This document shows positions 7,999-19,913 of a DNA stretch of 26,878 bases, one piece after another. The notes under the pieces were generated by a model. It saw only the letters and a list, made by a program, of their open reading frames with translations, was not told the DNA's origin and did not search any database. The translations under genes were made by a program, and so were the position numbers. Where the stretch lies: IMG/VR virus record IMGVR_UViG_2698536476_000007; one strand, written 5' to 3'. Source of the DNA: a virus. Its lineage: Duplodnaviria > Heunggongvirae > Uroviricota > Caudoviricetes. Every line of letters starts with the position of its first letter. Position 1 is the first letter of the stretch.

Positions 7999-8018
7999 TA
8001 ATAATTCTCAACTGTCTG

Positions 8019-13883: not shown

Positions 13884-14207
13884 ATGCTTCTGACAATGGA
13901 AGAGATTAAAGCCCAACTCCGGCTGGATGAGGATTTCGATGCTGATGACCGCCATCTGCAACTGCTGGCCTGTGCGGCGCAAAAGCGGACGGAAACGTAT
14001 CTGAACCGGAAGCTCTATGCTCCGGATGAAACCATTCCGGACAGCGATCCGGACGGGCTGCACCTGCCGGATGATATTCGTCTGGGGATGCTGATGCTTA
14101 TCAGCCATTTTTACGAAAATCGCTCGTCGGTTACAGACGTTGAGAAAATGGAGTTGCCAATGAGCTTTAACTGGCTTGTCGGCCCGTACAGGTATTTCCC
14201 GCAATGA
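13884..14207 (+). CDS. Head-tail connector protein (gp6-like)
   Basis: 107 aa; position and size; N-terminus 'LTMEEIKAQLRLDEDFDADD' typical of gp6-like connectors; GAGGG RBS. Confidence 0.7.
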   Translation: MLLTMEEIKAQLRLDEDFDADDRHLQLLACAAQKRTETYLNRKLYAPDETIPDSDPDGLHLPDDIRLGMLMLISHFYENRSSVTDVEKMELPMSFNWLVGPYRYFPQ

Positions 14208-14614
14208 AAATTCGTCAGGCGCAGACCAGCGCAACCTACATTCTGCCGGACCCCGGTGAACTGAATAAACGCGTCCTGATCCGCCAGCGGGTGGATATGC
14301 CCGCGGATAACTTTGGCGTGGAGCCTCAATACCCGGTTACGTTCCGGACATGGGCGAAGGTTATCCAGACCAGTGCCACCACCTGGCAGGAAACCGCGCA
14401 GACCGGGGACGCCATCACCCATTACATCACCATTCGTTACCGCCGGGGGATCACCGCTGATTATGAGGTGGTCTGCGGTGACAGTGTGTACCGGGTGAAA
14501 CGTCAGCGCGATCTGAACGGGGCGCGGCGCTTTCTGCTGCTGGAGTGTACGGAGCTGGGCGAATGTAGGCAGAGTCACGGAGGCAACAATGACGACTTCC
14601 TTTTTGCACGTTGA
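14204..14614 (+). CDS. Head closure / head-tail adaptor protein
   Basis: 136 aa; ATGA overlap with the previous gene; position in the head-completion cluster. Confidence 0.6.
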   Translation: MKIRQAQTSATYILPDPGELNKRVLIRQRVDMPADNFGVEPQYPVTFRTWAKVIQTSATTWQETAQTGDAITHYITIRYRRGITADYEVVCGDSVYRVKRQRDLNGARRFLLLECTELGECRQSHGGNNDDFLFAR

Positions 14615-15095
14615 TTTTCAGCAGCCCGCGGAGATGCGCTTTAACCGCGCCCGTGTCCGGCGGGCGTTTGTCACGATTGGTCAGCGTCATATGCGTGATG
14701 CCCGTCGGCTGGTGATGCGCCGTGCACGGTCGGCACCGGGTGAAAACCCCGGTTATCAGACCGGACGCCAGGCTCGTTCAATTGGTTACATGGTACCCAG
14801 AGCCAGTAAACATCGCCCTGGTTTTATGGCACGTATAGCCCCTAACCAGCGTAATGGAGAGGGAAACCGCCGTATCACCGGTGATTTTTATCCGGCTTTT
14901 TTGTTCTATGGCGTGAGGCGAGGGGCAAAGCGTCGTCGCGGCCATCATCGTGGTGCATCCGGTGGCAGCGGCTGGCGACTGGCTCCACGTAATAACTTCA
15001 TGGTGGAAACTCTTGAAAAGAACCGCAGCTGGACACGCTATTTTCTGGCGCGGGAATTGCGTAAATCACTGAAGCCGGAGCGACGACACAGATGA
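14589..15095 (+). CDS. HK97 gp10-like virion morphogenesis / tail completion protein
   Basis: 168 aa, very basic; GGAGG RBS at 14578-14582; position between head closure and tail genes. Confidence 0.55.
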   Translation: MTTSFLHVDFQQPAEMRFNRARVRRAFVTIGQRHMRDARRLVMRRARSAPGENPGYQTGRQARSIGYMVPRASKHRPGFMARIAPNQRNGEGNRRITGDFYPAFLFYGVRRGAKRRRGHHRGASGGSGWRLAPRNNFMVETLEKNRSWTRYFLARELRKSLKPERRHR

Positions 15096-15660: not shown

Positions 15661-15831
15661 ATGTTTGTCAAACCTGTTAAAGGGCGGTCAGTGCCTGACC
15701 CTGCCCGCGGCGACCTTTTGCCCGCCGAAGGGCGAAATGTTGACGAGAACAACTACTGGCTGCGCCGTGAAGCAGCGGGTGATATCCGGCGCGTGAATAA
15801 AAAGGTGAACACCGATGACGATAAGCTTTAA
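15661..15831 (+). CDS. Small protein upstream of the sheath (DUF2635-like; below the ORF-track size cutoff)
   Basis: ATG 15661 to TAA 15829-15831, translating MFVKPVKGRSVPDPARGDLLPAEGRNVDENNYWLRREAAGDIRRVNKKVNTDDDKL; overlaps the sheath start; conserved position in Mu-like tail clusters. Confidence 0.45.
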   Translation: MFVKPVKGRSVPDPARGDLLPAEGRNVDENNYWLRREAAGDIRRVNKKVNTDDDKL

Positions 15832-17311
15832 CACCATTCCGTCGAATACGCTGGTTCCGATTTTTTATGCGGAAATGGATAACCAGGCGGCGAATACTGC
15901 ACAGGACAGCGGAGCATCGCTGCTGATTGGTCATGCCAATAACGGTGCAGAGATTGTTGCCAACAGTCTGGTGCTGATGCCATCGGCAGACTATGCACGC
16001 CAGATTTGTGGTGCGGGAAGTCAGCTGGCGCGTATGGTCGAGGCTTATCGCCAGACCGACCCGTTTGGTGAACTGTATGTGATTGCCGTTCCTGAATCCA
16101 CGGGCGCGGCGGCAACAGTTACGCTGACGGTGACCGGCGCGGCAACCGAAACCGGCACGGTGAATGTTTATGTGGGACGTACCCGCGTGCAGGCACCGGT
16201 GACCAACGGCGATAACGTCGCGACGATTGCCAGCAGTATCCAGGATGCCATCAATGCCGTTCCGACCCTGCCGTTTACTGCCTCATCTTCGGCAGGCGTG
16301 GTCACACTGACCGCGCGTCATAAGGGGCTTTGCGGGAATGAAATTCCTGTCAGCCTCAATTACTACGGCTTTGGTGGGGGCGAAGTGCTGCCAGCGGGCG
16401 TACAGATTGCCGTGGCGACGGGTACCGCCGGAACGGGCGCTCCTGTTCTCACCGGCGCGGTGGCTGCAATGGCGGATGAGCCGTTTGATTATATCGGCCT
16501 GCCGTTCAACGACACAGCCTCCGTTAACACGCTGGTGACCGAGATGAACGATACCAGCGGTCGCTGGAGCTATGCGCGTCAGCTGTATGGTCATGTGTAT
16601 ACGGCAAAGATCGGCACGCTGTCAGAACTGGTGACCGCAGGTGACCAGTTTAACCAGCAGCACATTACCCTGGCGGGATACGAAAAAGAGACCCAGACGC
16701 CTGCCGACGAGCTGGCGGCAAGCCGTACCGCCCGCGCAGCGGTGTTTATTCGCAACGATCCGGCACGTCCCACGCAGACCGGTGAGCTGGTGGGTATGCT
16801 GCCTGCGCCGAAGGGGAAACGGTTCACGATGACCGAACAACAGACCCTGCTGTCTCATGGCGTGGCAACGGCGTATGTCGAAAGCGGGGTACTGCGCATT
16901 CAGCGTGATGTCACCACGTACAGGAAAAACGCTTACGGGGTTGCGGATAACAGCTACCTCGACAGTGAGACACTGCATACCAGCGCGTATGTACTGCGCA
17001 AACTGAAATCCGTCATTACCAGTAAGTACGGGCGTCACAAGCTTGCCAGTGACGGTACCCGCTTTGGTCCCGGTCAGGCGATTGTCACCCCGGCGGTGAT
17101 CAAAGGGGAACTGCTGGCAACCTACCGTCAGCTTGAGCGTGCGGGGATCGTGGAAAACTACGAACTGTTTAAGCAGTACCTGGTTGTGGAGCGTGATGCC
17201 AGCGATCCGAACCGCCTGAACACGCTGTTCCCGCCTGACTATGTTAACCAGTTGCGTGTCTTTGCCGTGGTTAACCAGTTCCGTCTTCAGTATTCAGAGG
17301 AGTCTGCATAA
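15815..17311 (+). CDS. Tail sheath protein (Mu gpL-like)
   Basis: 498 aa (Mu L is about 495 aa), followed by a 118-aa tube gene; N-terminus 'FNTIPSNTLVPIFYAEMDN' sheath-like. Confidence 0.85.
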   Translation: MTISFNTIPSNTLVPIFYAEMDNQAANTAQDSGASLLIGHANNGAEIVANSLVLMPSADYARQICGAGSQLARMVEAYRQTDPFGELYVIAVPESTGAAATVTLTVTGAATETGTVNVYVGRTRVQAPVTNGDNVATIASSIQDAINAVPTLPFTASSSAGVVTLTARHKGLCGNEIPVSLNYYGFGGGEVLPAGVQIAVATGTAGTGAPVLTGAVAAMADEPFDYIGLPFNDTASVNTLVTEMNDTSGRWSYARQLYGHVYTAKIGTLSELVTAGDQFNQQHITLAGYEKETQTPADELAASRTARAAVFIRNDPARPTQTGELVGMLPAPKGKRFTMTEQQTLLSHGVATAYVESGVLRIQRDVTTYRKNAYGVADNSYLDSETLHTSAYVLRKLKSVITSKYGRHKLASDGTRFGPGQAIVTPAVIKGELLATYRQLERAGIVENYELFKQYLVVERDASDPNRLNTLFPPDYVNQLRVFAVVNQFRLQYSEESA

Positions 17312-17667
17312 TGGCCCGTATCGGGGGAACCTGTTATTTCAAAATTGACGGTCAGCAGCTATCGCTGACCGGCGGCATTGAGGTGCCCATGAACAGGACG
17401 GTCAATGATGACATCATCGGCCTGGACGGTTCAGTGGACCGCAAGGAAACTCACCGTGCGCCTTATGTCAAAGGGACCTTCAAGGTGCCGAAGAATTTTC
17501 CGGTGAGCAAAATCACCTCGTCTGATGAGATGACCATCACTGCCGAGCTGGCAAACGGTCAGGTCTATGTACTGTCGTCTGCCTGGCTGCACGGCGAAGC
17601 GAACCATAATGCCGAAGAAGGCACGGTCGATCTTGAGTTCCACGGTGAAGAAGGGGATTACCAGTAA
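17311..17667 (+). CDS. Tail tube protein (Mu gpM-like)
   Basis: 118 aa immediately after the sheath with a 1-nt TAATG overlap. Confidence 0.8.
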   Translation: MARIGGTCYFKIDGQQLSLTGGIEVPMNRTVNDDIIGLDGSVDRKETHRAPYVKGTFKVPKNFPVSKITSSDEMTITAELANGQVYVLSSAWLHGEANHNAEEGTVDLEFHGEEGDYQ

Positions 17668-17936
17668 TGAAAGAGCTTGAGTTAAAGAAACCGATTACCG
17701 CTCATGGCGAGACACTCTCCGTACTGGAGTTTGATGAGCCCACCGGGAAAGATGTCCGCGAGCTGGGATATCCCTACCAGATGAATCAGGATGAGTCCGT
17801 CAGACTTCTGGCGCATGTGGTATCGAAATACATCGTGCGGCTGGCGAAAGTGCCGCAAAGCTCTGTCGACCAGATGTCTCCGGCAGACCTGAATGCAGCG
17901 GCGTGGCTTGTGGCCGGTTTTTTCCTCCAGGCCTGA
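17667..17936 (+). CDS. Tail assembly chaperone (short form)
   Basis: 89 aa directly upstream of the tape measure; contains the slippery heptamer T_TTT_TTC at 17918-17924 near its 3' end. Confidence 0.7.
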   Translation: MKELELKKPITAHGETLSVLEFDEPTGKDVRELGYPYQMNQDESVRLLAHVVSKYIVRLAKVPQSSVDQMSPADLNAAAWLVAGFFLQA

Positions 17937-18085
17937 CGGCTGAATACCTCACTGATCGCTTCTTTGACTGCGCCAGTTACTGGCGCATTAATCCCTTCGA
18001 ATTGCTGAATATGCCGATCAGTGAAATTCCCTTGCTGGTCAGTCAGGCAAACAGGATAGAGCAGGAGAAACGCACACATGGCTGA
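17903..18085 (+). CDS. -1 frame extension of the tail assembly chaperone (made as a fusion by programmed frameshifting; fusion spans 17667-18085)
   Basis: The -1 frame is open from the slippery site to 18085; its translation FFPPGLTAEY... continues directly from the zero-frame GFF; it overlaps the tape measure start (18078). Confidence 0.55.
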   Translation: MACGRFFPPGLTAEYLTDRFFDCASYWRINPFELLNMPISEIPLLVSQANRIEQEKRTHG

Positions 18086-19913
18086 ATTTGAGCTTAAGGC
18101 GTTGATCACCGGTGTCGACAGGCTTTCTCCCGCGCTGTCGAAAATGCAAAAGAAAATCCGGGGATTTAAACGCCAGGCGGAAGAAGCGTCACAGGGTGGG
18201 CTGGCGCTTGGTGGCGGACTGGCAGCGGGTCTGACGCTTTCCCTGAAATCTTATGCCGATCAGGAAAACGCCGCCACCGGGCTGAAAGTCGCCATGATGG
18301 ATGCGAACGGCGAGGTTGGAAAGAGCTTTCAGGACATCAATAAACTGGCTATTGGCCTGGGTAACCAGCTACCCGGTACAACGGCTGATTTCCAGAACAT
18401 GATGCAGATGCTGGTGCGTCAGGGGATCCCGGCAGAAAACATTCTTGGTGGTGTGGGTAAAGCGACAGCTTATCTTGCGGTACAACTGAAAAAAACACCG
18501 GAAGCGGCTGCTGAGTTTGCTGCAAAGATGCAGGATGCTACCGGAACGGCGTCAGAAGACATGATGGGGCTGTTCGACACTATCCAGAAGGCGTTTTATC
18601 TGGGCGTTGATGATACCAACATGTTGTCCTTCTTCACTAAAACCAGTTCTGTTCTGAAAATGGTGAATAAGGACGGTCTTCAGGCTGCACAGAGTCTTGC
18701 CCCCATCAGTGTCATGATGGATCAGATGGGGATGAACGGGGAGTCGGCAGGTAATGCCCTGCGAAAAGTTATCCAGTCCGGATTAAGTGTTAAGAAAATC
18801 AGGGACGTCAATAAAATCATGGCCCGCCAGAAACTCGGGGTACAGCTCGATTTTACTGATGGCAAAGGGAGTTTTGGCGGTCTTGATAACATGTTCAGGC
18901 AACTGGCAAAGCTGCGAAAACTGACCGACGTTAAGCGAACCGGTGTACTTAAGGCAATATTTGGTGATGATGCCGAAACCCTTCAGGTGGTCAATGCGCT
19001 GATCGATAAAGGAAAGGATGGCTACGATCAGATCCAGCAGAAGATGAATAAACAGGCCAGCCTGAATAAACGTGTTCAGGCTCAGCTTGGTACGCTGTCC
19101 AACCTGTGGGAGGCAATGACGGGGACCGCAACTAACGGCCTTGCGGCTATTGGCGGCGCATTTTCTGGTGACGCTAAAAATATCACGCAATGGCTGGGGG
19201 AGTTAGGGGAAAAATTCACGAAGTTTGCGGATGAAAATCCCCGGGTTATTCGCGGCGTCGTCGGGCTTGCTGCCGGTCTTGCGATTCTGAAACTGGGATT
19301 GATGGGCGTTGGCGGTGCCATCAGTATTGTCAGCAGGATCATGTCGATGACGCCGATTGGCATGATTGCGACGGCGATAGCCCTCGCTGCGGGATTAATT
19401 ATCACTAACTGGGATGTTGTCGGACCTTATTTTAAGAAACTCTGGGAAACCATTGGTCCTTATTTTGAGACTGGCTGGGAACTTCTTAAGAAGGTTTTTG
19501 CCTGGTCGCCGCTGGGGATGGTGATCAATAACTGGGGACCGGTTGTTAAGTGGTTTCAGGATATGTGGGACAAGCTGAAGCCAATTATTGAGTGGTTTAC
19601 CGACAGTTCCGGTGACACGGTCGATGCCATTAACTCTGCGCAGTGGGGCGCGGGTGCTTATGATGCTTATGGGACGGGAATACCGGCGCGGGGATACACA
19701 CCTTATCCGGCGGTAGATCCGGCTCAGTCAAACAACGCCTCCGATGCCACAGGCCTGAATCCCTTCATGATTAACAAAGCTTCTGCGCCAAAAGTTGATG
19801 GTGAGATCAAGGTCTCTTTTGTGAATTCGCCTCCGGGTATGCGGGTTATGGAAACGCGATCCAGCGGTTTTGATGTCAGCCATGATGTTGGCTATACGCG
19901 CTTTGGCAGGTAA
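18078..19913 (+). CDS. Tail tape measure protein
   Basis: 611 aa, Ala/Gly-rich with hydrophobic stretches, directly after the chaperone frameshift pair. Confidence 0.85.
   Translation: MAEFELKALITGVDRLSPALSKMQKKIRGFKRQAEEASQGGLALGGGLAAGLTLSLKSYADQENAATGLKVAMMDANGEVGKSFQDINKLAIGLGNQLPGTTADFQNMMQMLVRQGIPAENILGGVGKATAYLAVQLKKTPEAAAEFAAKMQDATGTASEDMMGLFDTIQKAFYLGVDDTNMLSFFTKTSSVLKMVNKDGLQAAQSLAPISVMMDQMGMNGESAGNALRKVIQSGLSVKKIRDVNKIMARQKLGVQLDFTDGKGSFGGLDNMFRQLAKLRKLTDVKRTGVLKAIFGDDAETLQVVNALIDKGKDGYDQIQQKMNKQASLNKRVQAQLGTLSNLWEAMTGTATNGLAAIGGAFSGDAKNITQWLGELGEKFTKFADENPRVIRGVVGLAAGLAILKLGLMGVGGAISIVSRIMSMTPIGMIATAIALAAGLIITNWDVVGPYFKKLWETIGPYFETGWELLKKVFAWSPLGMVINNWGPVVKWFQDMWDKLKPIIEWFTDSSGDTVDAINSAQWGAGAYDAYGTGIPARGYTPYPAVDPAQSNNASDATGLNPFMINKASAPKVDGEIKVSFVNSPPGMRVMETRSSGFDVSHDVGYTRFGR

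Follow-up and report, generated by a model that had tools for sequence, protein, structure and literature searches.

A probable programmed -1 ribosomal frameshift in the tail assembly chaperone gene of SfV-type prophages

Comparative sequence analysis points to a programmed -1 ribosomal frameshift as the likely means by which the tail assembly chaperone gene of an SfV-type prophage yields two proteins. A slip of one base at the heptamer T_TTT_TTC would produce a long chaperone of 139 aa beside the short one of 89 aa. That a recoding event yielding the 139-aa protein exists is highly probable and, given that it occurs, it is quite probably ribosomal. The earlier note on this DNA had proposed a -1 frameshift in the tail chaperone, and this proposal is backed by gene order, by purifying selection, by the fact that half of the relatives could not start the extension independently, by deep conservation and by kinship with gpE of phage P2.

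The window, meaning the whole stretch of 26,878 nucleotides that was analysed, represents a prophage of the SfV/SfI/SfII type. It shares 97-98% identity over at least 17 kb with those phages of Shigella and E. coli, and coordinate 1 of SfII corresponds approximately to window position 7999.

Gene order and the candidate slip site

The tail module of the window is Mu-like by its Pfam content, with genes for the sheath, tube, chaperone and tape measure followed by those for a DNA circulation protein, a gpP-like hub and a gp45-like spike. The sheath gene (15815-17311, assigned by Pfam) precedes the tail tube gene (118 aa, plus strand, 17311-17667; PF10618 Tail_tube, E 2.4e-33), which lies directly 5' of the chaperone. 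The short chaperone is encoded in frame 0 by an ORF of 89 aa on the plus strand (17667-17936, TGA at 17934-17936). It matches PF10109 (Phage_TAC_7) with 60.3 bits against a cut-off of 25, and the match reaches as far as the slip site, at residue 86 of 89. The tape measure gene (611 aa, plus strand, 18078-19913; PF10145, E 1.3e-26) follows. NCBIfam holds no model for the short or the long chaperone form, a PDB sequence search returned only spurious matches to light-harvesting proteins, and a single-sequence AlphaFold model of the 139-aa form was set aside as too poor to interpret (pLDDT 46.5).

The 3' end of the chaperone ORF reads ...GCC GGT TTT TTC CTC CAG GCC TGA, with GGT to TGA at 17916-17936. 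The slippery heptamer lies on the plus strand at 17918-17924 (frame-0 codons GG-T TTT TTC) in the register X_XXY_YYZ, so that TTT and TTC are frame-0 codons, 12 nt before the chaperone stop. The earlier note had placed this heptamer in register with the 89-aa ORF and had described the -1 frame as open from there to 18085, continuing from the frame-0 residues GFF. The coordinates and frames of the heptamer are correct in the sequence, and translation confirmed the open frame, which closes with TGA at 18083-18085. The first codon after a -1 slip is CCT at 17924, and the extension (plus strand, 17924-18085, 53 codons and the stop) translates as PPGLTAEYLTDRFFDCASYWRINPFELLNMPISEIPLLVSQANRIEQEKRTHG. 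The long form of 139 aa thus corresponds to join(17667..17924, 17924..18085). Stops in the -1 frame, the last of which (17894-17896) is found in three sequences, together with the frame-0 stop confine the frame change to 17897-17936. Within this interval the heptamer is the sole X_XXY_YYZ motif.

In the proposed mechanism, most ribosomes would read GGT TTT TTC CTC CAG GCC and stop at TGA 17934-17936 to give the short form. A minority would slip back one base, with the two tRNA-Phe on UUU (P site) and UUC (A site) re-pairing with UUU UUU, and would then read CCT CCA GGC... in the -1 frame to the distal TGA. The resulting long form would consist of the same 86 N-terminal residues followed by a 53-residue C-terminal module. 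If the two forms work as in lambda G/GT and P2 E/E+E', the short one would coat the tape measure protein, and the rare long one would use its extra module to bring in the tube protein. Both forms would act as assembly factors needed at a fixed ratio set by the slip frequency. From the sequences we infer the production of the fusion protein, the ribosomal nature of the slip, its frequency and the roles of both forms.

The distal end of the extension meets the tape measure gene. The ATG of that gene (18078) and the stop of the -1 frame share the sequence ATGGCTGA, an overlap that is unchanged in four diverged sequences. Stop and start overlap or adjoin in every lineage, at distances of -5 to +8 nt elsewhere and with an 8-nt overlap in P2. 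The Shine-Dalgarno sequence AGGAG of the tape measure gene (plus strand, 18063-18067) lies inside the extension, 10 nt 5' of the ATG, and is purine-rich in relatives. The overlap of stop and start and the embedded Shine-Dalgarno sequence suggest that translation of the long form may be coupled to that of the tape measure protein. No conserved ORF on the other strand overlaps the extension.

Conservation of the motif and coding of the extension

The slip motif is of a kind that is common in this DNA. The window holds 45 copies of TTTTTT, where shuffles hold 22 +/- 7, and the plus-strand ORFs of at least 80 aa hold 22 in-register X_XXY_YYZ heptamers. The motif alone is therefore not beyond chance, and the case rests on comparative evidence. 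The heptamer is significant through its position, 12 nt before the stop and between the tube and tape measure genes, through the long -1 ORF that runs to the tape measure start, and through its conservation. The same abundance of T6 runs and heptamers would fit a reading in which nothing is expressed, 17937-18077 being an untranslated spacer and the heptamer a chance T run, and most annotations (SfV, SfI, SfII, EPP-1, AH07 and RefSeq E. coli) do leave the gap empty. This reading is hard to reconcile with the substitution pattern of the extension and is considered extremely unlikely.

The substitution pattern was obtained from 14 distinct sequences with 72-100% nucleotide identity, aligned without gaps and drawn from Escherichia, Shigella, Edwardsiella, Pantoea, Citrobacter, Kluyvera, Buttiauxella, Scandinavium and Atlantibacter. 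Upstream of the heptamer, column entropy is highest at the third positions of frame 0 (1.15 vs 0.35 and 0.21); between 17937 and 18077 it is highest at the third positions of the -1 frame (0.92 vs 0.43 and 0.23). For the extension, Nei-Gojobori dN/dS lies at 0.02-0.29 when read in the -1 frame and at 0.8-3.5 when read in either of the other frames, and the -1-frame range matches that of the chaperone body in frame 0 (0.06-0.14). The -1 frame is the sole frame free of stops in all 14 sequences, and its stop falls in the identical column in each of them. The extension is under protein-coding purifying selection in the -1 frame. The three-base periodicity, the low dN/dS and the preserved ORF length and stop position argue against an untranslated spacer, as does the recognisable homology of the extension across more distant lineages.

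The codons GGT TTT TTC are invariant in 14/14 sequences. This includes the synonymous sites of GGT and TTT; the Ala codon before them occurs with each of the four bases in third position. The synonymous sites of GGT and TTT precede the slip and are hence free of any constraint from dual coding.

A rival reading takes the -1 ORF as an independent gene of 60 aa that starts with GTG at 17903. Such a gene is annotated in one record (vB_EcoM-689R6, ON470584.1, 9199-9381), and PHROG 32181, a family of unknown function, matches the extension with E 3e-41. A potential start codon (GTG, ATG or TTG) is present at 17903 in 7 of the 14 sequences. The other seven have CTG there, and in these the first start lies past part or all of the conserved FDCASYWRINP block and would leave a product of 22-45 aa. 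The codon at 17903 is made up of the wobble base of an Ala/Gly codon and the TG of a conserved Trp codon, and no Shine-Dalgarno sequence precedes it. Upstream of the heptamer, moreover, the -1 frame shows no coding constraint (dN/dS 1.9-4.0). An independent gene is thus given very little credence, and the comparison indicates that the 60-aa gene of vB_EcoM-689R6 (window 17903-18085) and PHROG 32181 would be mis-calls of the frameshift extension.

An unbiased count of the frameshift site took in all 97 SfV-type loci retrieved by protein similarity. The exact motif GGT TTT TTC is present in 94 of them. The three altered loci are IMG/VR prophage contigs (L042, L073 and L079; position ~1450-1460). 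Two loci read GGG TTT TTC, in which a synonymous change has removed the T at the X position, and L042 reads GGG TTT TTT, which keeps the T6 run one base out of register. These loci may be decaying prophages or natural variants of lower efficiency. A scan of viral contigs yielded near-identical loci only and was used for conservation counts alone.

Several sequences retrieved along the way stand apart from these counts. Six database proteins in which the two frames are fused (P0001-P0006) were rejected as natural fusions, as they carry scattered indels typical of error-prone assemblies. A locus assigned to Omnitrophota (L018) proved to be a spurious pattern match with in-frame stops. On a contig of Edwardsiella hoshinae NBRC 105699 (L007), the fused chaperone sequence is 100% identical to that of the window, although E. 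coli and Shigella are the usual hosts of this element; the prophage may recently have been transferred horizontally, or the assembly may be mixed.

The site is also preserved at much greater distances. Relatives with 31-44% identity in the chaperone protein also carry a heptamer on a T run, at the equivalent site and with its register unchanged. The heptamer is T_TTT_TTT in SfIV, phiP27, ST64B and YeP1; T_TTT_TTC in Burkholderia phage BgVeeders33, the Pseudomonas tailocin DVM-2008 and a Haematospirillum plasmid-prophage; and T_TTT_TTG in Pseudomonas phage PG1 and Bordetella phage PBb002. The -1 extensions of these relatives end within the distances from the tape measure start given above, and they align across lineages with ~16-33% identity and a core motif A-x-[FY]-W-[RK]-x-[ND]-P-x-E. 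The codon before TTT encodes G, S, P, D, R or N, and its third base is always T. In the GC-rich lineages, TTT makes up 4-25% of Phe codons and third-position T about 10%. Since both are rare there, NNT-TTT-TTN is kept in these lineages by selection at the nucleotide level. The contrasting case is Paraburkholderia phage IPK (L104, an UNVERIFIED record, 1140-1194), which encodes GFF as GGC TTC TTC and in which the -1 frame is closed at this point. Here too the extension lies in the -1 frame, but ribosomes could enter it only over a 10-nt interval beside the stop, within GAG GGC GCG TAA, which suggests a different shift site (G_GGC type) or a sequencing error.

Ribosomal slip, polymerase slippage and stimulators

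The heptamer U_UUU_UUC is among those reported to be frameshift-prone in E. coli, and it lets both tRNA-Phe re-pair perfectly in the -1 frame. In an E. coli reporter, UUUUUUC gave 0.12% frameshifting without a stimulator and 7.6% with the IS3 pseudoknot; the corresponding values were 0.33% and 10.2% for UUUUUUU, and 0.12% and 0.77% for UUUUUUG. The earlier note had pointed to RNA structure downstream of 17924 as a check on the proposal, and this check brought no conserved stimulator to light within 45 nt: across 13 lineages, the downstream 45 nt fold no better than shuffles (z -1.65 to +1.74). At the usual stimulator spacing, only a weak hairpin of 3-4 bp was found, and it is not conserved. 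The sequence upstream of the heptamer is variable and holds no conserved Shine-Dalgarno-like element, and Rfam gave no relevant match. The arrangement of dnaX and IS3-type sites, with a hairpin or pseudoknot 5-9 nt from the heptamer and/or a Shine-Dalgarno-like element 6-17 nt upstream, is thus not the one seen here. Given the low efficiency of the bare motif and the lack of a recognisable stimulator, slipping at this site could be very inefficient. RNA stimulators have been reported absent in P2, as have strong ones in lambda, and their absence here is consistent with those systems.

A level of a few percent, as reported for the long forms of lambda and P2, would need an unrecognised stimulator, either a nascent peptide or a distant hairpin. 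This is judged unlikely. If it were true, one candidate would be the conserved hydrophobic nascent peptide ending ...V-A-G-F-F. The other, limited to the SfV subgroup, would be an invariant hairpin that acts from a distance.

The hairpin in question is a perfect inverted repeat of 8 bp on the plus strand at 17969-17987, 45 nt downstream of the heptamer and inside the extension. It reads UGCGCCAG-YUA-CUGGCGCA as RNA and TGCGCCAG-YTA-CTGGCGCA as DNA. In 49 distinct segments its stem never varies, not even at four synonymous third positions; the loop and the flanking synonymous sites vary. The hairpin is absent from SfIV-type and more distant lineages. It is probably not a classical frameshift stimulator, as it lies too far from the heptamer. 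It sits in a stretch that most ribosomes would leave untranslated, and it could be a separate regulator of tape measure translation or of mRNA stability.

How might the 139-aa protein arise other than by a ribosomal slip? The only serious rival is transcriptional slippage, in which RNA polymerase would add one U in the T6 run and some mRNAs would encode the 139-aa protein by standard translation. The motif type by itself would be compatible with this process. A homopolymeric run of T6 or T7 is present at the site in every lineage, L042 retains its T6 run outside the canonical register, and the bare ribosomal efficiency of the motif is low. The efficient bacterial cases of slippage, however, have been reported at about nine A or T, or at shorter motifs with an adjacent nascent-RNA hairpin, and the run here is 6-7 nt. 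An upstream hairpin is neither significant nor conserved (16 lineages, z -1.3 to +1.0), and a terminator-like hairpin followed by a T run at 17904-17923 was rejected, being at chance level and not conserved. In all lineages where a T-run site was identified, its first T is exactly the third base of the codon before TTT, the least that a tandem tRNA slip needs. The run never exceeds seven T, although the Z position is free to be T. The homologous site of P2 has also been described as a translational frameshift. Polymerase slippage is disfavoured on these grounds and is regarded as quite improbable, which leaves the ribosomal slip at T_TTT_TTC as the preferred reading.

Related systems, annotation and other heptamers

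The closest known system is that of phage P2. In its FETUD tail operon, a -1 frameshift at T_TTT_TTG adds the product E+E' (142 aa) to the shorter E (91 aa). P2 gpE and the window chaperone both fall into PF10109, with 47.8 and 60.3 bits respectively, and the P2 domain match likewise ends at its slip site (residue 85 of 91, compared with 86 of 89). The two heptamers are alike, with T6 and one further base in the same register, and differ in the last base (G in P2, C in the window). The products are of similar size, 91/142 aa in P2 against 89/139 aa in the window. In both cases the gene lies between tube and tape measure genes of a contractile-tail phage, and the extension runs 8 nt into the tape measure gene (gene T of P2, 19857 vs 19850; window, 18085 vs 18078). 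The frame-0 tail after the slip is six codons long in P2 and three in the window. The rest of the window tail module is Mu/SfV-like and not P2-like.

Kinship between the two extensions is suggested at the profile level only. An hhalign comparison of a profile of 12 extensions with P2 E' gave a probability of 84% (E 7e-6, 35 columns). The window extension gave no match to the Pfam model of P2 E', PF06528 (Phage_P2_GpE), at E up to 10, and its Bordetella relative gave a weak one (E 0.064). BLASTP of the whole protein against P2 was not significant (E 0.56).

In lambda, gpG and gpGT occupy the same genomic position as the window chaperone, and there too a short abundant form is accompanied by a rare long one at a site that has no strong stimulator. 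The lambda proteins share no detectable sequence similarity with the window, the heptamer is G_GGA_AAG and the tail is non-contractile. A role of the extension in binding the tube protein would be transferred from lambda to the window by analogy alone.

The surrounding tail module most closely resembles that of phage Mu, with homologues of its sheath, tube, DNA circulation protein, gpP and gp45, and Mu is the closest module overall. Mu gp41 is encoded at the same position before the tape measure gene and has a weak PF10109 match (24.7 bits). It is a protein of 144 aa assigned to PF23746 (Gp41_Mu); the window protein has no PF23746 match and matches PF10109 only. The extension of Mu lies in the +1/-2 frame after GGGGGCGA, and a -2 frameshift has been reported for gp41, a protein that is not resolved in recent structures of the Mu tail. 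A shift of the Mu type finds no open frame in the window, where the +1 frame is closed within a few codons by stops from 17941 onward. The window element is best described as a chaperone of the P2 gpE family in a Mu-like tail module, and it would work like P2 E/E+E' and lambda G/GT.

G/GT-type frameshifts in tail assembly chaperones were reportedly set out as a class by Xu, Hendrix and Duda in 2004. Four characters of the G/GT type are found at the window locus: the position between tube and tape measure genes, an overlapping ORF for which half of the 14 sequences have no usable start, an in-register slippery sequence and conservation despite divergence. A further character of the class is a fusion protein made at a low, fixed ratio, with both forms necessary for tail assembly and neither present in the virion.

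Among 5,426 complete E. coli genomes, 1,086 carry the locus. The records examined in detail, namely those of SfV, SfII, EPP-1, AH07, 689R6 and one RefSeq E. coli record, have no frameshift annotation, and the feature names in SfI and other sampled RefSeq E. coli records suggest that none is annotated there either. The records examined lack the long form and either leave a gap of 141 nt or call the spurious 60-aa gene. A description of the site for the SfV group was not found in the full-text literature; the survey by Xu et al. from 2004 lay outside the scope of this search, and an earlier prediction is possible. The genome-wide screen of conserved heptamers by Sharma et al. (2014) reported five prophage clusters, none of which is this chaperone family. 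Frameshifting of this kind is textbook knowledge, and the slip site is of the P2 type; the locus is a new, or at least unannotated, example.

The main value of the proposed site would be the correction of annotation in E. coli, in the Shigella serotype-converting phages SfV, SfI and SfII, and in related phages and tailocins. The SfV-type chaperone emerges as a relative of P2 gpE. Mu-like tail modules would then differ in how they recode at this position, with at least two solutions: -1 on a T run here and -2 in Mu. For the engineering of these tails and tailocins, both predicted products and their ratio would have to be kept.

Two further heptamers in the window were noted in passing. A second in-register T_TTT_TTG lies at 14897-14903 inside an ORF of 168 aa (14589-15095); 29 codons are open in its -1 frame, and it is probably due to chance. 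At 14195-14207, T_TTC_CCG occurs 6 nt before the stop of the ORF 13884-14207, and its -1 frame runs into the next gene (14204-14614). This arrangement looks like an ordinary ATGA overlap of start and stop, not recoding.
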